Assembly (NCBI GenBank): GCA_035358955.1
Contig: DAORXN010000003.1
Location: forward strand, 845 to 64,844
Source of the DNA: Syntrophales bacterium
GTDB taxonomy: Bacteria > Desulfobacterota > Syntrophia > Syntrophales > UBA8958
DNA length: 64,000 nucleotides
Direction of reading: 5' to 3'
Program-made: the position numbers and the translations under genes
In this document: positions 11,732 to 41,422 of the stretch, one piece after another
How the letters are laid out: every line of letters starts with the position of its first letter
Position numbering within the stretch: position 1 is the stretch's first letter
The notes under the pieces: generated by a model
Database searches by the model: none
Told to the model about the DNA's origin: nothing
The model's input: the letters and a program-made list of their open reading frames with translations, nothing else

Positions 11732-12506
11732 CACCCTTGGGCGGTAGGAACTGAAGGGGGTTCAAGGGTTTCGTATTTTCACGGATTTCGAAGTGGATGA
11801 AGGCCCTTCCGTTTTTTCCCGTGGAGCGGGGGGTGCCGATCTTTTTCCCCTGCACAACCCGTTCCTCCACGCGAACCAGGCGGGAACCCAGATGGGTATA
11901 GATGGTCGTAAAGCCCCGGTCGTGTTTCAAAATTACCGTTTCGCCGAAATCCTTGAGGGAGGCGGAGAAAATGACGGTGCCGTCCGCCGCGGCGATCACG
12001 GGGTCGGATTCTTTCCCATCGATTCGGATGTGGTTGAAGAACATACCACCCGGTTGATGCCCGAAGTTATTCGTAACCTCACCCCGGTAAGGCCAAACGA
12101 AAAGCCGCTTTTCCCCCTTAGTTGTCTCCGGTAAAGGCTTCGGCTCTTCTTTGGGGGGGAGAGGTTTTTTCTCCACCGTTTCCTTGCGTGATGGGGGAGG
12201 AGGAGGTGGCGGTGATGATGAAGTCTTTTTGCCTTTGGTCTCCTTCTTCTGGGTGGCGCCGGGGATGAAAAGCACCGTGTCTTCCTCCAGGTGGGACGAA
12301 AGGTCTTTTATATTGTTTGCCCGGGCGATTTCGAGGACACTTACGTTGTATTGACGGGCTATTTTATGGAGCGTCTCCCCCCGCTCCACTTGGTGGTAGA
12401 TACCGGGCCGATGTCCTCCCCCGCAAGAGGTAAGGAGCATCAAACCGATGGCAAAAGAGAAAAGGCTTATTTTATGAGCGATATTTCGGTTGCGAACCGG
12501 TTTCAA
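11718..12506 (-). CDS. nlpD: LysM + M23 peptidase lipoprotein (NlpD-like)
   Basis: Lipobox LLTSC, a LysM motif ([19 protein letters not shown]), a Pro-rich linker and an M23 domain. Start chosen at TTG 12506, giving MKPVRNRN..., which overlaps the pcm stop. Confidence 0.8.
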
Positions 12507-13159
12507 TGTCGCCAACCATGCTCTCCGATCAAGTCTACAAAGCGGCATCCACCCAAGGCCTCCTTCTTCACCTCTTCCGGGTCGTCGGAAAGGCGGGTAA
12601 CCCGGTAGAGTTCCTGGGTGAACCTGCCCCCCACCGGGATGACCAAGCGGCCGCCGATGGCCAGTTGTTCAACGAGCGGTCGCGGAATATTGGGGGCACC
12701 GGCCGTGACGATGATGGCATCGAAAGGGGCTTGATCCCTCCATCCGAGGGAGCCGTCCCCCACGCGGATGGCCACGTTGAAGTACTTGAGGGCATCGAGG
12801 GTTTTTCTGGCCTGCGCCGCCAGGGTGGCGATGCGCTCGATGGAGAAAACCTGTTCAGCTATTTCCGCCAGGATGGCCGTCTGATAACCTGATCCCGTAC
12901 CGATTTCGAGCACCTTTTCCTTGCCCGAAAGTTTCAGGGCCTCGGTCATGATGGCCACCATATAGGGTTGCGAGATAGTCTGCCCTTCCCCGATGGGTAG
13001 CGGCGTATCGTTGTAAGCTTGATCTTCCAAGGCGGGTTCAACGAAGAGGTGGCGCGGAATCTTTTCCATCGCCTTGAGTACCCTTTCGTCTTTGATTCCC
13101 CGGGCCCTTATCTGGGCATCCACCATCTTTTTTCTCTGCCTTAAGAATCGGTCGATCAT
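12503..13159 (-). CDS. pcm: protein-L-isoaspartate O-methyltransferase
   Basis: 218 aa. ...[14 protein letters not shown]...[16 protein letters not shown]... is canonical Pcm. Confidence 0.9.
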
Positions 13160-13518
13160 AGATGATCCTTGATAAGCTTCATCCGGGGCGGGATCGCGTA
13201 AATTTCGGCCACACGCTGATGATGGCGTAGCCCCAGGGCCTCCCGGGTTACAATGAGATAGTAATACCTAAGGTCGGCGTGCTTACGCAACTCATTGTAA
13301 TGGCGGATTGATTCGTTGATGGTATTGACCAGATGCTGGCGCATATGGGGAGAGTCGGGAGGAAGATGGGAAAGCTCCCTTTTCAGGCACTCAATGTGCT
13401 CTGCGAGGGCCCTCAAGCGGCCCAAGGCCTCGTCCACCCTGTTGCCGGCCCGGGTCAGGGCTTCCGCCCTTTCCCGCATGATTTCTTGCTGGATGATTTC
13501 ATCCGGCGTCTGGTCCAT
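13156..13518 (-). CDS. hypothetical helical protein (occupies the position surE holds in surE-pcm-nlpD operons)
   Basis: 120-aa ORF, translationally coupled to pcm. I recognise no motif. Confidence 0.5.
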
Positions 13519-13636
13519 GAGCTTACTTTAACATCATCACCGGCTAAGTTCAAGACGCAACGGGGAAAATACCGGCCCTTTACAGGAAGGGGATACTTCC
13601 GTATAAGGGGGCAAGACTGGCGAAGGATTAAAGCAT

Positions 13637-15208
13637 ATGCCGAAGAAACCCAATCATACCATGTCCCAGGCGGTAAAGGCCGCTTACCTCCGGGGAGAAG
13701 ATGACGAAACCATGCTTCCCCTGGTGAGGGTTGAGGCGGACGGAAGGCCCCTCGGGCGGATTAAACCATTGGACGGGGTGATTTTCTATAACATTCGAGG
13801 AGAAAGGGAAGTGGAGCTCACCCGGGCCTTGGTAGAAGATGATTTTGCCGAGTTTCCCGTCCGGAGGGATCTGAACCTCGCCTTTGCCACGATGGTGGAG
13901 TACGATCCTCGCCTTCGCGTACCCTGTGCCTTTCCCCCCGACGGGGAGATCCGCGATACCCTCGGGGAGGTCATTGCCCGGGCAGGGCTGACCCAGGTAA
14001 AGATTACGGAAGCAGAGAAGGCGATGCATGTGAGTTATTTCCTGAACGGTAAGCGCGTGGAGCCCTTTCCCAAGGAGGAGAGGATAGTCGTCCCGACGCG
14101 CAAGGACGTAACCCTCTTCGATGAGGCGCCGCGCATGTCCATTGACGGAATCGTGGAGGCGGCCATCGAGGCGATAAGAAATTCCCGTTACGACTTCGTG
14201 GTGGTAAATTTCCCCAACGTGGATGTGGTGGGGCACATCGAGAATGAAAGGGCCGTCATGGAAGCGGTATCGGCCGTGGATGAAGCGGCGGGCAAGGTTA
14301 TAGGCGCGGCCCAAGAGGCGGGTGTATCTGTGATCGTGACGGCCGATCACGGGACGGTGGAAAAGTGGCTCTATCCCGACGGGAAAGTGGACACGGGTCA
14401 TACTATGAGCCCCGTTCCGTTTGTGATAGTGAACCCTGTGGAGGGGTTGCAGCTAAGAAAGGGGGGATCCCTTATCGATGTGGCGCCTACGATCCTCGAT
14501 CTTTTCGGCCTGGAAGTCCCCGAAGCCATGACGGGGAAGTCGCTTATTACGGGCGGGCTTTCACGCCGGGCATGTCGGATTGCCCTCGTCATCCTCGATG
14601 GCTGGGGCGAAGCTCCGGCGGGGCCGGGTAATCTCATTTCCCGCACCGAGACACCGGTCATGGACCGCCTAAAGTTGGAATACCCCTTCACCTTGCTCGA
14701 AGCGGCAGGAAACGCGGTGGGTCTTCCCGCGGACACGGTGGGAAATTCCGAGGCCGGGCATTTGCATATCGGCGCCGGTCGCGTGGTGGCAGCCGAAAGG
14801 GTGAAAATCGATGAGGCGATCAGGGAGGGGCATTTTTTCGTCAACCCCGTCTTTAAAGCGGTGATGGCGAAGGTACGCCGGAGAAAAAAGGCCCTCCACC
14901 TGATGGGGATTGTATCTTTTTTCAGCTCCCACGGTTCGCTTCATCACCTGTATGCCCTTTTGGAGATGGCGAAAAGGGAGGGTCTTTCGGAGGTTTATAT
15001 CCATGCCATGTTGGGCCGGAGGGGGGAGAAGCCGGAAAGCGGGGCCCGCTACGTGGGCGAAATCGAGGATAAATGTGCTGAGTTGGGCATAGGCCGGGTA
15101 GTTTCCGTAATCGGCCGCTATTGGTCGATGGATCGAGAGGAAAATTGGGATCGCATCGAGAAGACTTACCGAATGCTGGTCTTCGGCGAAGGAAGGCCGG
15201 TATCTTAG
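13637..15208 (+). CDS. gpmI: 2,3-bisphosphoglycerate-independent phosphoglycerate mutase, circularly permuted domain order
   Basis: All iPGM motifs are present once each. However, the canonical C-terminal ~285 aa precede the canonical N-terminal ~225 aa (see findings). Confidence 0.85.
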   Translation: MPKKPNHTMSQAVKAAYLRGEDDETMLPLVRVEADGRPLGRIKPLDGVIFYNIRGEREVELTRALVEDDFAEFPVRRDLNLAFATMVEYDPRLRVPCAFPPDGEIRDTLGEVIARAGLTQVKITEAEKAMHVSYFLNGKRVEPFPKEERIVVPTRKDVTLFDEAPRMSIDGIVEAAIEAIRNSRYDFVVVNFPNVDVVGHIENERAVMEAVSAVDEAAGKVIGAAQEAGVSVIVTADHGTVEKWLYPDGKVDTGHTMSPVPFVIVNPVEGLQLRKGGSLIDVAPTILDLFGLEVPEAMTGKSLITGGLSRRACRIALVILDGWGEAPAGPGNLISRTETPVMDRLKLEYPFTLLEAAGNAVGLPADTVGNSEAGHLHIGAGRVVAAERVKIDEAIREGHFFVNPVFKAVMAKVRRRKKALHLMGIVSFFSSHGSLHHLYALLEMAKREGLSEVYIHAMLGRRGEKPESGARYVGEIEDKCAELGIGRVVSVIGRYWSMDREENWDRIEKTYRMLVFGEGRPVS

Positions 15209-15229
15209 CCTGCAAAGGAGGTGAATACA

Positions 15230-15772
15230 ATGGAAGTAATGGTGAATAAAGCGCGTCTTGTCTTGGTCAAAGGGGACATCACAGAAGAGGAAACCGATGC
15301 CATTGTAAATGCCGCCAATTCGAGGCTGGCCGGCGGTGGTGGCGTGGACGGTGCCATCCATCGGGCAGGGGGGCCCTCCATCATGGAAGAGTGCCGCCGC
15401 ATAGGGGGATGCCCCACGGGTAAGGCCGTGATCACCGGGGCGGGCAACCTCAAGGCTAAATATGTAATTCATGCCGTGGGTCCCATCTACCAAGGAGGGA
15501 CGCGGGGGGAAGAGAAACTACTGAAGGGGGCCTACGAGGAAAGCTTGAAGATAGCGACGAAAAAAGGCCTCAAAAGCATTTCTTTCCCCGCCATCAGCGC
15601 GGGAGCCTACGGGTATCCGCTTAATGAGGCAGCGCGGATTGCCCTTCAGACGGTGATCGACTATCTCAAATCTACGGAGGGGCTCGAACTCGTGCGTTTT
15701 GTCCTCTTCGATGAAAGAACGCTCGATGCCTTTCGGCGGCAGCTTACAGCTTTGAAGCCCGCCCTTGGTTGA
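15230..15772 (+). CDS. macro domain protein (O-acetyl-ADP-ribose deacetylase, YmdB-like)
   Basis: VKGDITEEETDAIVNAANSRLAGGGGVDGAIHRAGG is canonical macro. AGGAGG lies 8 nt upstream of ATG 15230. Confidence 0.85.
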   Translation: MEVMVNKARLVLVKGDITEEETDAIVNAANSRLAGGGGVDGAIHRAGGPSIMEECRRIGGCPTGKAVITGAGNLKAKYVIHAVGPIYQGGTRGEEKLLKGAYEESLKIATKKGLKSISFPAISAGAYGYPLNEAARIALQTVIDYLKSTEGLELVRFVLFDERTLDAFRRQLTALKPALG

Positions 15773-34888: not shown

Positions 34889-37800
34889 ATGAAAGCGAAA
34901 AGAAGTGTAACCATTTCGGTTCTGTTGATAATGCTCATGTTAATGCCCTTAACCGTTCTGGCTGCCCCCGTTGGGAAGGTAACTCACCTGGAGGGGCAGG
35001 CGGATGTAACCGTTCAGGGGGTGACGACGCCGTGCAGGCAGGGGATGGAGGTAAACGCGGGAGACATTGTGCGCACGAAGAAACAGTCCCGCGTGGGGAT
35101 TACCCTGGTGGACGGGAATATGATCTGGGTGGCCCCCCTTTCTCGCCTGCGCGTTACCCAGTACAGCCCGGAAGAGGGGAAACAGAACTACTGCGACCTT
35201 TTCCGCGGCAAAACCAGGGTGGTGGTGAACGCCATTGCCAAGGGGTCCTCCTTGGAAGTGCATACACCCACCGCAGTGGCGGGTGTGAGGGGGACGATCT
35301 TTATCGGCTTCTTCGAGCGCGGCCAGAGTGGGTTCATCTTTGAGCGGGGCTCCGGGTACGGTTACAACCGGCAGATGCCCTCCAAGGTGGTTACCATCGA
35401 GGCCGGGCATATCATGGTCGTGCCTAAGACGGATCAGGAACCGGTCGTGCGGCCGGCGACGAGGCAGGAAATAGACCGCCATATACAGGATACGACGGGA
35501 GGGGAGGAAAAGAAGGCAGAGCAGGAGAAACCGACGGAGAAGGCCGCCGAGGGAGCGAAGGAAGAGAAGAAAGAGGCGGAAGCAAAGCAGGCGACGGAGG
35601 CGAAACCGGAGCCGACCACGACGACGGATGCCTCGGTGACCACGCAAGTAGCAGAAACAGAGACAACTACGGTACAGGGCACTACTCCTTCGCCACCGCC
35701 TGTAGAAACGCCGACCGTTCTGCCGGAACCACCTCCACCGGTACCAGTACCCACTGCCACCACGACGGACTTAAAGCCCGTTGACGTTTCCATTGACGGC
35801 ATTTCCGGCCAGTTGACGGGTTCGGTGGACGATAAGACGAATAAAGGCACGTTGAAGTTTGCCGCCGCAGGTGCCCTGCCGAATTTCTCGAAGGTGATAA
35901 GCGGTACTCTCTCCGATGGCAGTAGCCTCGATGCCTATCTCGCCGGGGTGACGGGCTCCTGGAGCGGTCTTTTCTATGGCCTGGCAAAGAAGGGTGAATC
36001 AATCTCGCTTTTTTCTGCCGTCCTGGAAGATAAAAGTTACACCGGTAGCGGCACGCTTTCCGCCTCGGGTACACTGGAGAGAACGTCGGTCTGGAAATCA
36101 ACATCTGGTTTGGCTGAGTATGAGTTTTACGCCCCCTATTTTAGTGGAGTATCTGCCCAGGGGCTGGCGATGGGAATGTCGAACGGTACACTTTACGGTT
36201 ACGAAGGTGCGGCAGGTAAAATATACGGCATCTGGGGCTCCGAGGTGGTCGGTGGCGCTTACGAGGGCGTCCCTGTCTCGGCGACCGTTCCTTTTGGTTA
36301 TGTGCACTATGCAGAGGATGTCCTGGCGGCGGTGGTCGTCGGGACGGGCACTTTAAATGACGATGGCGCGGGGCACGTGCAGATTGGGGTTGATCATGCC
36401 TATTACATGGATGGAGATTACTATGGCGAAGTAGGCATGTCCCATCGCGGCGTCTACGCGGGAACGGACTACCGCGGGATCACGGCCGGTGCCGGGCTGT
36501 TTACCCCCCTGTCGTATAGCGGTTTTGCGTGGGGGTCTTTGTTCGATATCGAGGAGTCGACCCAGGGGTATATTGATGGGCTCGTGGGGGGGACCTCTGG
36601 CCTTCCCTGGTCGGGCAGTGCCGATATAAAAATGCTCGGATGGTATTACACTTATCCGGGAGCAGCGGAAAAAAGGTTGCTCTGGCACGGATTAATCGGG
36701 GACCATGGCTATGGGACGGATGGCAGCTATGTCTATACCGGATACGCTCTGGGTATCTGGGGGGCGGAGATCCCTGGTTCCTATCGAGGAGTCTATTTCA
36801 CCGAGGGGGCGGGCGGCTTTCTGGAAAGCGACGACTTGACTTTTACTTCTTATCCCATCGCCAACCTGCCCCAGGGCTTCGATGGGGTATGGATGGCCCA
36901 GGGGAGCCTTGCCGCGCGGGCCATGTCGGTCCCGCCCGGCTTTGCGATGGCAGGGTTTGCTTACCTCTTTAGCCCCCTTAACCTCACGGGGACTTCCCAG
37001 TCGCCCTCGGTTTTCGGTCAGGGGGAGTTCTGGGCTTCTTTACCTAAAGGCTCGGACGGTCAGATTCTTCCGTGGGGCTTATATGAAGCAGGGACTTCCG
37101 GCGTGGGGCTGCAGGGAGGCATAACGAACTGGGAAGTCATCATGGGCGGGGTGGAAAGCGATTCTTCTTTTTTCGCCTTTTTAGGCGAGTCCCAGGGGAC
37201 GAGGTCCGAGCCGGGGATCATTAGAGGTGAGGCGAGGGGCGATTTTGTAACCCCCACCCTGGTGGGCACCTTTGAGGGCCCCGTTTACGGGGCAGATGAC
37301 GGAAGTGGCAACTGGGGGACGTCCAGTATCGGCACGATGGAAGGAAAACCCAGCCTGTTTGGGGGAGAGTGGACGCATAGCACCATCTATAACGATTCCG
37401 GTACCTGGGCGTGGAACGGCGATTTCGACCGCGCATACTTCGGTCTTACGGAAAGAACGGATGGGAAACTGGATTTTCTCGCGATCGGGGGATTCTGGGA
37501 TAAAGGGTACGGCGCGGCCGGCTACGGCGGGCCTTATATCTTGAGCGGGGCCCTTTATGATTCCCCATCCGGGAGCCGTACCTTGTTCGAAGGTTTCACG
37601 GGTGGAATCATGACTAAGGCGGCGGCGGATTTGTCGGGAACCATCACGGACTACCTGACATCCCTCTATGGCCGGTACGAGGGTGGCAGCTGGCAGGTGG
37701 GGCTCATCCGGGGCGATCTGAGCGGGCACTTCTACGAGATGTTCCGCAATGAACCCGAAGAGAAGCTTTACGACATGTTCCGCCTGAAGGGCACCACGGC

Positions 37801-40800
37801 CGGTCTGGAAGTGAAGGAAAAGACCGCCTTGCTGCCACCTGGACTGGGAGAAAATGATGTATGGATTTATTTCGGTGGATTTTCCAACGTTCGTTTCGCG
37901 GGGAGTTTCGACGGTACGGGGGAGATAATAGGTGATTATTATTGGGGTAAGACGAAGTTCCTCGGATATTCGCAAGGCGATAAAACGATAAGCTTGCCCT
38001 TCGGCATTTACAATCTAAAAATCGGCGCGGGCAATAGTTATTACGAAGATAAGCCGGCGGGAAGTGAGGTTTCTTTCCGCGCCCGAGTGGGGGGTATGGG
38101 AGCATTCGGATACGAGGGTGATGGTTACTGGCTTGCCTCAGTGAACGGTAACTCGTGGATGCCATACGCTGACGGGGCAGATCACGGAACGATCACGGGC
38201 ACCTTGAGCGGCCGCTATCTAACACCGACGCAGATGGGAACCATGACGGGGCCCTTCTACGGGCTCTACCAGGGCTCAGGCGAGGGGACGTGGATAGGCC
38301 TTGCCGTGGGGACCTATGAAGGCGAGAGCCTCGCCATGAGTGCCTCCCTTTCCGGGCATCTGGCCTCCGTCGTGCCGGGATCTTTCAGGGTGCGGGAGTT
38401 CTTGCGCCCCTATTATCGTACCGCGGCGGCACAATCATGGTTCGATCCTCTCCAATATGAGGCCATTTACTTCGTACCCCAAGGGGGAGGGCCGGATATT
38501 ATGCGTACCTTCTCCCACGAGAAAGTAGAAATACCGGGCTCGGATGGATCATATTACGATAAGGGGGTCCCGTACTTCCCGACGGGGAAATGGATGGCCC
38601 TTGAGAAGGGTAACGGCATTACGCAGGTGATCGGGGGCGGTGATACTGATCCAAACTGGTCTCTTGCGGGGGATACTCCGTCGGCCGTAATCAGTCAGAA
38701 CCTATCGTTTTTCGCGAATCCCGATCCCGGCACATCTACCTTTACGTATGGTGTGTTCGTGCCCGCCTACGATGTGATGTGGGAAGGCGTAAACGGCATC
38801 ATGGTGGGAAACGAGATTGAAGGGCGGCTCGGGGTGCTGGCAGGACAAGACCTCTGGACTTCCGCGCCGTCAAACAAGGCTTCCATGGTCATGATGGGCA
38901 CTCACGGTGAATATAGCGGGCATGAGCTCGTATTTATGAGCGGTTATTCCGACTTCGGTAAGGGGGCCTTCTTTGCCGATGTGTTAGGGATCATCCGCAA
39001 GACGGATGCCGCAAGTGGGAATCCCATGGACGGGCTTTTGATCGGTCTTTACGCCGATGGCGAGGGTAAGGTAGGCGTCCTGAAAGGTGAATGGACGGGT
39101 TCCTCCTATCCGGAAATAGGCATGTGGGAGGCGGGGGGAGGTGCCACGGCGGCGATCTACCGGGATGGGACGCTCAAGGATTTTACGGGTAGTTCCGTGA
39201 CCCCAGACGACCTAATAAGTTCCCGCGTTTTAATGGGGGCTTTCGGCCTCGGCACCAACAGTACCCTTTACGGGACCTTTGACGGAAGCGGGTATGTGAG
39301 GACCCCGGTGGGCATCATAGGCCGGACCTATTCTCTCGATGATCAGCCTGATTGGGGCATCTTTCGCCTCACGGCGGGGTTGGTAAATGAATACGACAAA
39401 CCTGCCGGTACGGGGACAGGCTGGAGCGGCACCCTCTTCGGTGACGGGACTTTCGGGCGCTATCCTGGAAGTTCCCCATATAACGATTTGGGTATGTGGT
39501 ACGCGGACCTTACTTCCGGCACGTGGGAAAACGGGAAGATCACGGGCAACTTTGCGGGTGAGTTCGTCACCCTCTTGAAGAAAGGGGCTATCGAAGGCCG
39601 ACTCTTGGGCACCTATGATGGAAATGGTACGTCTTGGCAGGCGGTCGGGGCCGGGACGTGGTCGAAAAGCGAGGAGGTGTACTTTGGAAGCGAGATCTGG
39701 GGAAAGAGCTACGTCCTTACCCACCAAAAATACGGGGGGTTGGTCAAGTACAACTATTCCTACTCCTTTCAGTTTAACGATCAGGGTTACTACCGCTACG
39801 GGAGCGGGGTGCTCACCGAGTGGACAAATCCGTCCTCGCCCGAGAAATATACTTACTATTGGTACGGCATGGAGGGGCCGGAAGGTGCGCCGCAGCGCCA
39901 CATCTGGACCCACACGACGGCGAATGATATCTTCACGTATCAGATAGAGGATTATGAAGACTTAGATGCGTACTACGCTGCCCTGGAAAATCTCGCCCGG
40001 GATCCTAAAACAGGATCACCCATCACCCTCAAGGAAGCGGCAGCTTTTCTGAAGAGTGACTTTAGCGGCGTCTTTGCCGGGCTGGATAACCTCTGGGCGA
40101 ACATCGGCGTGAAAGGCACCCCCGTCTATCTCCTCGGAGATACGAACATGATGGATGCAAAGGGACCCTTCGACCTCTTCCGGGCCGAGGTGGTGAGTGT
40201 GGATCCCTTGGAAAGTTCGGATCCTTATGCAAACTCCAAGAGCCGTGTTTGGGAGGGAAAGTACGGTGCCTACTTCGGCTTCCTGGGTGGTAGAAACGAC
40301 GCCTCGGCACATGCAGATGGTCTTTCCGTCATGTTCAAGGGCTTTTACCTGGATCAGGCTGGGAACTTTGGCCTCCTATATACGGATCCCACGGGCCCCT
40401 TGACCGGTACGGTAAACGAAGAGGTGGGTATGTGGAAAGCGTTAGGAGAGATCTTTGGCTATGCGCTGGGTACGGGTGGCATTTCCGGCGTCACGGCCGA
40501 GAACTTTGCCTCGAAACTTAGTATGGAAGGTTACTATTCTCCTATTTCGCTTTCAGCCGATAACGTGGTGGGTTCGGGCAGTCTTACCATGGAAGTCGTG
40601 GAAAGTACGAATGTCTACCTGCCGGAGCCTTACTTCAATACTTACCGTATTGGCCAGCAGATTTCTGCCGGTACTTACAACGGCACGAGTATCCCCACGG
40701 CCTGGACGTGGACGATGGAGGCAGGAACGGATACCTCTTGGATTCTGACGGAGGTGACGGCAACTAGAAATAACACCTTTGACGCTACCTCTGTCGAAGC

Positions 40801-41422
40801 CCACGTAAACTGGCAGGATGCCCGCACTTATGTAGCGGGGGGAGAAGTGAAGGGTATCTTCAATCCCAGTAATTCCACCTGGAAAGCGGTAGCGAACTCG
40901 TTCCAGATGGAGACGGGGGCCTTGATAAGTAAACTGAACTCGCTTACTTCTGATGAGGCCAGGCAGGCCTTCCAGCAGGCGACACGTATTCCCGCCTTCG
41001 AAATCGGGAGAGCGAATTTAACAGGAATGTATTCGGATGGTCATCTTACCATAGACATGCAGAGTGCTTCCTACGGGATGCGGGACGTCGTTTTCCTTGC
41101 CCCATCCAACGATGCTCGTCCTCAGATTTGGGCGACCGGATCAGTCTCCGGTCATACAACCGGACAGGCCGTTACCCCGGGGACGACGGTTTCGCTTTCT
41201 GATGCGGCAAAGAACATCTCCGCGGATTTCACCTTCAAAGCTTATATGCCTTGCGAGAGCAAGTGGAGTGCCACGGTGAGTGGTAATGCTCCCTCTGGTC
41301 TCGGTAACTATACCAGTGCCTTTACATTCCAGGGTGGGGCTGCCGGTACGATTCAGGGTACCGTCGGAAGTGGTGATTTTACCTTCAGTGGCACGGCGGC
41401 GGGGATCGTACCACCCAAGTGA
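34889..41422 (+). CDS. giant secreted protein: signal peptide, FecR domain, KEA/PT-rich linker, ~1,880-aa Gly/Tyr/Trp/Thr-rich repeat region of unknown fold
   Basis: Uninterrupted 2,177-aa ORF. GGAGGG Shine-Dalgarno, SPI-type signal (TVLA/AP), and the FecR-like GKVTHLEGQADV...GDIVRT...SRVGITLVDGNMIWV...VRGT. Confidence 0.8.
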   Translation: MKAKRSVTISVLLIMLMLMPLTVLAAPVGKVTHLEGQADVTVQGVTTPCRQGMEVNAGDIVRTKKQSRVGITLVDGNMIWVAPLSRLRVTQYSPEEGKQNYCDLFRGKTRVVVNAIAKGSSLEVHTPTAVAGVRGTIFIGFFERGQSGFIFERGSGYGYNRQMPSKVVTIEAGHIMVVPKTDQEPVVRPATRQEIDRHIQDTTGGEEKKAEQEKPTEKAAEGAKEEKKEAEAKQATEAKPEPTTTTDASVTTQVAETETTTVQGTTPSPPPVETPTVLPEPPPPVPVPTATTTDLKPVDVSIDGISGQLTGSVDDKTNKGTLKFAAAGALPNFSKVISGTLSDGSSLDAYLAGVTGSWSGLFYGLAKKGESISLFSAVLEDKSYTGSGTLSASGTLERTSVWKSTSGLAEYEFYAPYFSGVSAQGLAMGMSNGTLYGYEGAAGKIYGIWGSEVVGGAYEGVPVSATVPFGYVHYAEDVLAAVVVGTGTLNDDGAGHVQIGVDHAYYMDGDYYGEVGMSHRGVYAGTDYRGITAGAGLFTPLSYSGFAWGSLFDIEESTQGYIDGLVGGTSGLPWSGSADIKMLGWYYTYPGAAEKRLLWHGLIGDHGYGTDGSYVYTGYALGIWGAEIPGSYRGVYFTEGAGGFLESDDLTFTSYPIANLPQGFDGVWMAQGSLAARAMSVPPGFAMAGFAYLFSPLNLTGTSQSPSVFGQGEFWASLPKGSDGQILPWGLYEAGTSGVGLQGGITNWEVIMGGVESDSSFFAFLGESQGTRSEPGIIRGEARGDFVTPTLVGTFEGPVYGADDGSGNWGTSSIGTMEGKPSLFGGEWTHSTIYNDSGTWAWNGDFDRAYFGLTERTDGKLDFLAIGGFWDKGYGAAGYGGPYILSGALYDSPSGSRTLFEGFTGGIMTKAAADLSGTITDYLTSLYGRYEGGSWQVGLIRGDLSGHFYEMFRNEPEEKLYDMFRLKGTTAGLEVKEKTALLPPGLGENDVWIYFGGFSNVRFAGSFDGTGEIIGDYYWGKTKFLGYSQGDKTISLPFGIYNLKIGAGNSYYEDKPAGSEVSFRARVGGMGAFGYEGDGYWLASVNGNSWMPYADGADHGTITGTLSGRYLTPTQMGTMTGPFYGLYQGSGEGTWIGLAVGTYEGESLAMSASLSGHLASVVPGSFRVREFLRPYYRTAAAQSWFDPLQYEAIYFVPQGGGPDIMRTFSHEKVEIPGSDGSYYDKGVPYFPTGKWMALEKGNGITQVIGGGDTDPNWSLAGDTPSAVISQNLSFFANPDPGTSTFTYGVFVPAYDVMWEGVNGIMVGNEIEGRLGVLAGQDLWTSAPSNKASMVMMGTHGEYSGHELVFMSGYSDFGKGAFFADVLGIIRKTDAASGNPMDGLLIGLYADGEGKVGVLKGEWTGSSYPEIGMWEAGGGATAAIYRDGTLKDFTGSSVTPDDLISSRVLMGAFGLGTNSTLYGTFDGSGYVRTPVGIIGRTYSLDDQPDWGIFRLTAGLVNEYDKPAGTGTGWSGTLFGDGTFGRYPGSSPYNDLGMWYADLTSGTWENGKITGNFAGEFVTLLKKGAIEGRLLGTYDGNGTSWQAVGAGTWSKSEEVYFGSEIWGKSYVLTHQKYGGLVKYNYSYSFQFNDQGYYRYGSGVLTEWTNPSSPEKYTYYWYGMEGPEGAPQRHIWTHTTANDIFTYQIEDYEDLDAYYAALENLARDPKTGSPITLKEAAAFLKSDFSGVFAGLDNLWANIGVKGTPVYLLGDTNMMDAKGPFDLFRAEVVSVDPLESSDPYANSKSRVWEGKYGAYFGFLGGRNDASAHADGLSVMFKGFYLDQAGNFGLLYTDPTGPLTGTVNEEVGMWKALGEIFGYALGTGGISGVTAENFASKLSMEGYYSPISLSADNVVGSGSLTMEVVESTNVYLPEPYFNTYRIGQQISAGTYNGTSIPTAWTWTMEAGTDTSWILTEVTATRNNTFDATSVEAHVNWQDARTYVAGGEVKGIFNPSNSTWKAVANSFQMETGALISKLNSLTSDEARQAFQQATRIPAFEIGRANLTGMYSDGHLTIDMQSASYGMRDVVFLAPSNDARPQIWATGSVSGHTTGQAVTPGTTVSLSDAAKNISADFTFKAYMPCESKWSATVSGNAPSGLGNYTSAFTFQGGAAGTIQGTVGSGDFTFSGTAAGIVPPK

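Follow-up and report, generated by a model that had tools for sequence, protein, structure and literature searches.

Cofactor-independent phosphoglycerate mutases (iPGMs) of the bacterial type (GpmI/GpmM; TIGR01307; PF01676 + PF06415; structures 1EJJ, 1O98 and 5KGN) are two-domain enzymes with a binuclear metal site, a serine nucleophile and an arginine-rich surface. They work by hinge closure of the two domains, which are joined by two peptides. Their canonical chain runs collinearly from an N-terminal part of the phosphatase domain, through an inserted transferase domain, to a C-terminal part of the phosphatase domain; in the Geobacillus stearothermophilus enzyme (1EJJ) the phosphatase domain reportedly comprises residues 1–76 and 311–511, and the transferase domain residues 77–310. 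Natural circular permutation, in which two blocks of a protein are exchanged with preservation of its fold and active site, is an already known phenomenon, and DNA methyltransferases, swaposins/saposins, transaldolases and concanavalin A are examples of it. The present study concerns a gene located at positions 13637..15208 (+ strand) of a 64,000-nucleotide (nt) stretch of DNA (hereafter, the window) of a Syntrophales bacterium (UBA8958; assembly GCA_035358955.1, contig DAORXN010000003.1, positions 845–64,844 of the forward strand). The complete open reading frame (ORF), of 523 amino acids (aa) plus a stop codon, encodes a protein homologous over its whole length to the bacterial-type iPGMs (approximately 39–45% identity) and, judged from its sequence, is a true circular permutation of these enzymes.

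A phmmer search against the PDB matched the window protein with 1EJJ at an E-value of 1.5e-123, and this match was composed of two blocks: residues 11–305 corresponded to 1EJJ_A 218–510 (221 bits, i-Evalue 2.5e-64) and residues 315–520 to 1EJJ_A 6–211 (197 bits, i-Evalue 3.7e-57). These blocks stand in exchanged order, do not overlap and jointly span both proteins from end to end; each is present once and without a leftover duplication, which is the pattern of a natural circular permutation. A self-BLAST of the protein detected no internal repeat, and a tblastn search revealed no second iPGM-like gene in the 64-kb window. The first-pass annotation of this DNA had already proposed the swapped order, with blocks at residues ~10–310 and ~320–523 separated by a linker (TGGLSRRACR). 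All twelve iPGM motifs quoted in it were found once each and where it had located them, its block boundaries were right within a few residues, the linker does occupy residues 305–314 (nt 14549–14578), and pairwise alignment with canonical iPGM yielded two swapped blocks and no collinear alignment.

Profile searches gave the same picture. The protein passed the iPGM equivalog TIGR01307 (488 bits, cutoff 330.65) with a match split over two stretches, and scored 417 against the stricter equivalog NF003897 (cutoff 862). Both Pfam domains, PF01676 (Metalloenzyme, E 1.4e-58) and PF06415 (iPGM_N, E 1e-55), were likewise matched in two stretches each, with positions 1–130 of the iPGM_N profile at residues 391–520, i.e. 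at the C-terminus of the protein, and positions 62–251 of the Metalloenzyme profile at residues 99–293. The canonical collinear order is therefore absent from the window protein. Neither NCBIfam 20.0 nor Pfam contained a model dedicated to permuted iPGMs.

In 1EJJ numbering, the order of the chain is 218–510, linker, 6–211, and five segments (all on the + strand) can be distinguished: (i) the second half of the transferase domain (1EJJ 218–310) at residues ~9–101 (residues 11–101, 13667..13939), containing Arg54 and Arg57 (Arg261 and Arg264 of 1EJJ); (ii) the C-terminal part of the phosphatase domain (1EJJ 311–510) at residues 102–305 (13940..14551), containing Lys128 (Lys336) and the metal ligands Asp196, His200, Asp237, His238 and His255, and closed by the canonical C-terminal motif MTGKSLI; (iii) the 9-residue linker GGLSRRACR, which bridges the old C- and N-termini, at residues 306–314 (14552..14578); (iv) the N-terminal part of the phosphatase domain (1EJJ 6–76) at residues 315–385 (14579..14791), containing Asp321 (Asp12) and the nucleophile Ser371 (Ser62; codon at nt 14747–14749); and (v) the first half of the transferase domain (1EJJ 77–211) at residues 386–523 (14792..15205), containing His432, Arg462, Arg494 and Arg500 and ending with the new C-terminus ...MLVFGEGRPVS. 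The domain limits at 76/77 and 310/311 agree with the boundaries of the Pfam matches in the window protein. As had been proposed, the phosphatase domain now contains the fused old termini, and the new termini result from a cut in the transferase domain; the break point (1EJJ ~211–218) lies in a loop between two helices of 1EJJ. The nesting of the canonical enzyme is thus inverted: the phosphatase domain is continuous (residues ~102–385) and is inserted into a split transferase domain. This distinguishes the protein from bacterial-type iPGMs as well as from the other natural permutants mentioned above, which belong to unrelated families, since in the present case a hinge-bending enzyme of two domains has been cut within one of them. 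Among homologs, the linker varies between 7 and 12 residues and has no conserved sequence. Being short, variable and unconserved across species, it behaves as expected of a fusion linker.

Public gene calls place the start of the gene at the in-frame ATG at 13661 (Met9), which gives a protein of 515 aa (P0001). A possible ribosome-binding site, AAGGA, read from the sequence at 13623..13627 (+ strand), lies 9 nt upstream of the ATG at 13637, and its position would favour the longer start, Met1, over Met9. Also bearing on this choice is a short variable extension of ~8 residues, which precedes a conserved MSxAV in most homologs. A scan for promoters and terminators around the gene gave nothing above shuffled expectation.

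The structure of the protein was predicted with AlphaFold2 (predicted local distance difference test score, pLDDT, 84.9; predicted template modelling score 0.85). The model shows, with good confidence, a two-domain fold like that of iPGMs, and resembles the closed bi-domain form of the bacterial enzymes. The modelled new termini comprise a helix at residues 8–18 (N-terminus) and a helix at residues 500–516 followed by a short strand (C-terminus). The pLDDT was 83–92 across the linker, and the linker together with the new termini ranged from ~73 (first ten residues) to 95. In a Foldseek search the top 22 PDB matches were all iPGMs, the best being the closed, substrate-bound structures 1EJJ, 1O98 and 1O99 (root-mean-square deviation 3.1 Å over ~297–300 columns, probability 1.00). 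The superposition was limited to these ~300 columns of the larger block, and the TM score of 0.50 refers to this block only; Foldseek aligns sequentially, so partial cover is expected for a permutant. No PDB chain was matched over the full length in this search, and hence there is no solved structure with this topology.

More distant members of the superfamily compare less well with the window protein. Archaeal-type iPGM (ApgM; TIGR00306/NF003104) belongs to the same alkaline phosphatase-like superfamily, performs the same chemistry and co-occurs in Syntrophus, but shows only a weak local similarity (E 1e-10, residues 170–267), differs in its cap domain and shows no permutation relative to its own family. 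Phosphopentomutase DeoB (NF003766/TIGR01696, E 1e-7) shares the metalloenzyme core, the presence of an inserted cap and a phospho-enzyme mutase mechanism; however, it has another cap domain and another substrate, and the phosphatase core alone can be aligned.

The window originates from a metagenome, and beforehand it was plausible that the swapped order was an artefact of assembly or gene calling, e.g. through the collapse of a tandem duplicate or a chimera formed at nt ~14550–14580. No evidence supporting this was found. Contigs of two JGI metagenomes and of one SRA run encode the window protein, and in these three independent assemblies the DNA is 100% identical over the gene, the junction and the covered flanks (300 nt on each side in two contigs; the third, L005, ends ~20 nt past the stop codon). 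In a search over 5.8 billion proteins, the best 120 clusters were all 515–616 aa long and collinear with the query, with 59–77% identity and, except for P0111, 97–100% coverage; P0111 (62% coverage) carries ~100 extra low-complexity residues exactly at the junction of the old C- and N-termini. A scan of one genome per species (302 relatives) was also performed, and the locus counts given below refer to its best 80 loci, some of which have shortened flanks. All 80 matched the query at residues ~1–523 in one piece and all belonged to Syntrophales (Syntrophus, Smithella and Smithellaceae). Among their carriers are Syntrophus buswellii DM-2, with a complete chromosome (NZ_CP175563.1), and a number of metagenome-assembled genomes (MAGs) with closed chromosomes (e.g. 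the Smithellaceae OY82xxxx series), and two isolate chromosomes contain intact collinear orthologs; that of S. aciditrophicus SB lies at CP000252 2054715–2056313. Moreover, the sequence and length of the junction vary by species without disturbing the reading frame of the blocks on either side. With identical DNA in three assemblies and the same order in more than 120 protein clusters and 80 species genomes, closed isolate chromosomes among them, mis-assembly was rejected, and we regard the probability of an artefact as negligible. A pseudogene was rejected as well, as none of the 80 Syntrophales loci contains an internal stop and all are intact collinear ORFs. Across the entire order the permuted gene is, by the evidence of these loci, under purifying selection.

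The same architecture extends beyond Syntrophales. A HMMER search of 1.84 billion cluster representatives yielded 11,882 homologs; among the top 150, 131 had the canonical order and 12 were full-length permuted representatives, all with one common break point. Named permuted members are Candidatus Desulfofervidus auxilii, Limnochordia (Bacillota) and a Pseudomonadota MAG. The Limnochordia protein, which is usually annotated as 'hypothetical protein', occurs in 324 blocks of the assembly index and on a 2.5-Mb contig. Permuted iPGMs are present in hundreds of genomes of anaerobes, order-wide in Syntrophales and in several phyla.

Two groups of permuted proteins were distinguished. Group 1 consists of the P0132/P0317/P0319 lineage, P0134, P0137, P0261 and P0212, whose members are ~50% identical to canonical enzymes and to each other, and ~40% identical to the window protein. 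Group 2 comprises the window protein, all Syntrophales sequences and the P0121, P0181, Desulfofervidus, Limnochordia, P0135, P0159 and P0162 lineages; it is long-branched, is monophyletic in 199 of 200 neighbour-joining (NJ) bootstraps and has derived motifs (GVHS changed to SSHG, RxDRAR changed to RGERE, and Asp154 lost). The window protein shares with group 1 the break point, the 7–12-residue linkers and the inverted nesting. When conservation was measured in a comparison set of 147 canonical iPGMs, in which 67 columns are at least 95% conserved, group 1, in contrast to the clade of the window protein, kept all 67 of these near-invariant positions. One group 1 member, P0212, is a 5027-aa Ala/Leu-rich protein with a permuted iPGM-like module at residues 3859–4371, in its C-terminal quarter.

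The catalytic apparatus is preserved in the window protein. All seven metal and nucleophile residues are kept (D321, S371, D196, H200, D237, H238 and H255, equivalent to D12, S62, D403, H407, D444, H445 and H462 of 1EJJ), as are H375, H432, R462, R494, R500, R54, R57 and K128 (H66, H123, R153, R185, R191, R261, R264 and K336), and in an alignment all these metal, nucleophile, Arg, Lys and His residues were invariant in 20 permuted homologs. The metal-ligand set is the same as that of Caenorhabditis elegans iPGM (PMC5382265). Some canonical motifs are altered, as might be seen in an inactive relic or a pseudoenzyme with a non-catalytic role. A pseudoenzyme would be expected to lose its catalytic residues, and the invariance of the metal ligands and the Ser nucleophile across orthologs of 59–77% identity, together with the stop-free state of all 80 loci, makes this explanation very improbable. 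The substrate contacts of the canonical enzyme are said to be His123, Arg153, Asp154, Arg185, Arg191, Arg261, Arg264 and Lys336; seven of these eight are kept, and Asp154 is replaced by Gly463. Asp154 is a position that we take to be substrate-contacting, and literature searches on the residue names yielded nothing on this role. The earlier claim that metal- and substrate-binding residues are retained was thus borne out for every metal and nucleophile residue, but not for Asp154, nor for 10 of the 67 near-invariant positions.

These replacements, and several further observations, weigh against a straightforward assignment of the window protein as a phosphoglycerate mutase (PGM). The Syntrophales clade keeps 57 of the 67 near-invariant columns, and most of the 10 changed ones lie in the transferase pocket; the changes include D151G, G152R, D154G, D263E, S362T, A400P, G409E and N447T, of which D263E, G409E and N447T adjoin catalytic residues. 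The D-G-R-D motif, at least 99% conserved in the 147 canonical sequences, reads G-R-R-G here: canonical L-D-G-R-D is replaced by LGRRG at residues 459–463 (15011..15025, + strand), a clade-specific change in which Arg153 is kept. Similarly, the S-D-G-G-V-H-S motif has become S-F-F-S-S-H-G in the clade of the window protein; the canonical S-D-G-G-V-H-S-H corresponds to SFFSSHGS at residues 427–434 (14915..14938, + strand), which is again clade-specific and contains His432, the equivalent of His123. In the AlphaFold2 model, loops of low confidence occur at the active-site segments 156–164, 197–201, 244–253, 462–466 and 496–501. Finally, the three archaeal-type iPGM homologs reported for Syntrophus (Foster et al. 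2010) could supply mutase activity, and we infer the 3-phosphoglycerate/2-phosphoglycerate (3PG/2PG) activity and the hinge mechanics of the permutant from an architecture, a conserved and real gene and a set of catalytic residues that were themselves observed.

Such observations would be accommodated if the gene encoded an iPGM-derived permuted paralog with a changed substrate, i.e. a mutase or phosphatase acting on another small phospho-acid or a sugar phosphate, with PGM activity provided by the ApgM homologs. The loss of Asp151 and Asp154, the altered positions of the transferase pocket, and the long branch and monophyly of group 2 would all suit this explanation. On the other hand, the Arg, Lys and His residues that bind the phosphate and carboxylate groups of phosphoglycerate are all kept and invariant, and TIGR01307 is still passed. 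S. aciditrophicus SB possesses no cofactor-dependent PGM, one bacterial-type iPGM and three archaeal-type homologs, and the domain order of its bacterial-type enzyme was not remarked on (Foster et al. 2010). That single bacterial-type iPGM is taken to be the permuted ortholog (P0057), so that this bacterium has no canonical iPGM. The first-pass annotation had named a separate normal gpmI, alongside an inactive permuted copy, as a finding that would refute its claim; such a gpmI was found neither in the window nor in this census. The archaeal-type homologs of bacteria are often not PGMs at all (e.g. TIGR02535, a proposed homoserine kinase). The main text of the S. aciditrophicus acyl-proteome paper contains no mention of PGM.

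The gene neighbourhood is relevant to the same question. In the window, the permuted iPGM gene is preceded by an intergenic gap of 118 nt and a 120-aa ORF without a Pfam match (13156–13518, − strand), which is divergent from it and overlaps the start of a PCMT gene (12503–13159, − strand) by 4 nt; the 120-aa ORF is present in 71 and the divergent upstream PCMT gene in 73 of the 80 Syntrophales loci. A Macro-domain gene (PF01661, E 1.7e-45; 15221–15772, + strand) begins 12 nt after the iPGM stop codon. It is found directly downstream in 74 of the 80 loci and overlaps the iPGM gene in S. aciditrophicus, and the two genes are probably co-transcribed. This operon-like pairing may be counted in favour of a changed substrate, and it also tells against a glycolytic role that the Syntrophales neighbourhood (PCMT, Macro, DciA) lacks glycolytic genes. 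Elsewhere in the window, a very long ORF, of 2177 aa, occupies positions 34889–41422 (+ strand).

More varied contexts were found outside Syntrophales. In a group 1 lineage (GCA_040960375.1; L009 6620–9626) the permuted iPGM gene overlaps the upstream pgi (glucose-6-phosphate isomerase) gene by 8 nt, an arrangement that indicates translational coupling in a glycolytic operon and that sets this lineage apart from the window gene. In Limnochordia (L006–L008 8001–11395), RapZ-like and cold-shock genes precede the permuted gene and a gene for a 570-aa phosphoglucomutase/phosphomannomutase lies 110 nt downstream of it; this adjacency and the pgi overlap count in favour of a working PGM. In Ca. Desulfofervidus auxilii (L091 5001–6572) the permuted gene overlaps by 44 nt the end of an upstream ORF whose 2401-aa product contains a PPDK_N (pyruvate phosphate dikinase N-terminal) domain. 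The P0162 lineage (L094 5001–6572) has N-R-H-G in place of D-G-R-D, and its gene ends an operon of LysR, SBP_bac_1/11, a fused permease and ABC/TOBE_2, 15 nt after the ATPase gene; this context suggests a possible role in the use of an imported phospho-compound rather than in glycolysis. In the P0290 lineage the permuted gene adjoins a glycerophosphodiesterase gene. Both of the latter contexts fit a changed substrate, and transporter operons around some deep relatives of the same clade may hint at functional drift. Taking the two sides together, we consider it unlikely that the substrate of the window protein has changed.

The permuted gene thus encodes a genuine, selectively maintained circular permutant of bacterial-type iPGM, and we consider it likely that its product is a bona fide 3PG/2PG mutase; since the D-G-R-D motif is lost (Asp151 and Asp154 to Gly), PGM activity is probable and not certain. 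Phosphoglycerate is known to be bound electrostatically on the surface of the transferase domain (PMC8113725), and the arginine cluster of this surface is retained in the window protein. Both inter-domain hinges persist despite the changed connectivity, and hence the same open/closed mechanism should apply: phosphoglycerate would bind to the arginine-rich transferase surface, the two domains would then close, the metal-activated Ser371 would take up the phosphate and, after reorientation of the glycerate, the phosphate would be handed back to the other hydroxyl.

Circular permutants are usually explained by a tandem gene duplication, after which the two copies fuse in frame and their outer halves are lost. 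Such a route would leave a short, unconserved linker at the former stop and start codons and new termini in a surface loop, and most plausibly it was also the origin of the permuted iPGM gene. A check of the 270 sequences then available revealed no fusion intermediates (BAB, ABA or tandem BABA); the over-length proteins P0123, P0130, P0136, P0156 and P0176 were rejected as such, having the canonical order with unrelated extensions, and so were 'BAA' architectures, which resulted from insertions splitting block A. In the flanks of the window gene, the 118-nt gap upstream and the 12 nt before the Macro-domain gene leave no room for duplication relics.

The number of origins was addressed with NJ trees of sequences un-permuted in silico. 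Fitch parsimony over 200 bootstraps required 2–6 changes of architecture, never one, and two changes sufficed in a single tree of the 200. In the full-data tree, P0137 and P0212 were sister to group 2, and the P0132 lineage, P0134 and P0261 were placed among canonical enzymes; only three columns unite the two permuted groups in states seldom seen in canonical enzymes. Since other permuted lineages than group 2 sit among canonical enzymes, these trees hint that permutation at this loop may be recurrent, although their deep nodes are weakly supported and were obtained with simple distances. A tentative scenario, to which we give some but not much credence, is that the same loop was opened several times independently, and that group 2 subsequently lost Asp151 and Asp154, maybe with altered kinetics, regulation or phospho-substrate. 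If true, these enzymes would form a natural series showing how chain connectivity constrains a hinge-bending enzyme.

The gene itself is not new to databases, because its orthologs are already deposited there under inconsistent names (iPGM, 'alkaline phosphatase family protein' or 'hypothetical protein'); it is the permutation that appears to be undescribed. The first-pass annotation was aware of no described permuted iPGM, and our search over about 8.3 million full-text papers and preprints, to the exclusion of subscription-only literature, did not find a description either. The comparative PGM paper that covers Syntrophus (Foster et al. 2010) contains neither 'permut' nor 'domain order'.

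An enzyme of central metabolism has thus been permuted and conserved at the level of an order, with its domain nesting inverted and, maybe, with recurrent permutation at one site. As its connectivity is changed and its hinges are the same, it is a ready-made probe of the hinge mechanism of iPGMs and of the hinge pocket at which ipglycermide inhibitors act, and the loss of the near-universal D-G-R-D motif in the derived clade raises a testable question of specificity. For the organisms concerned, the inconsistent naming of the orthologs means that the PGM step can look missing or uncertain in metabolic reconstructions, and this affects syntrophic degraders of fatty acids and aromatic compounds as well as abundant bacteria of anaerobic digesters.

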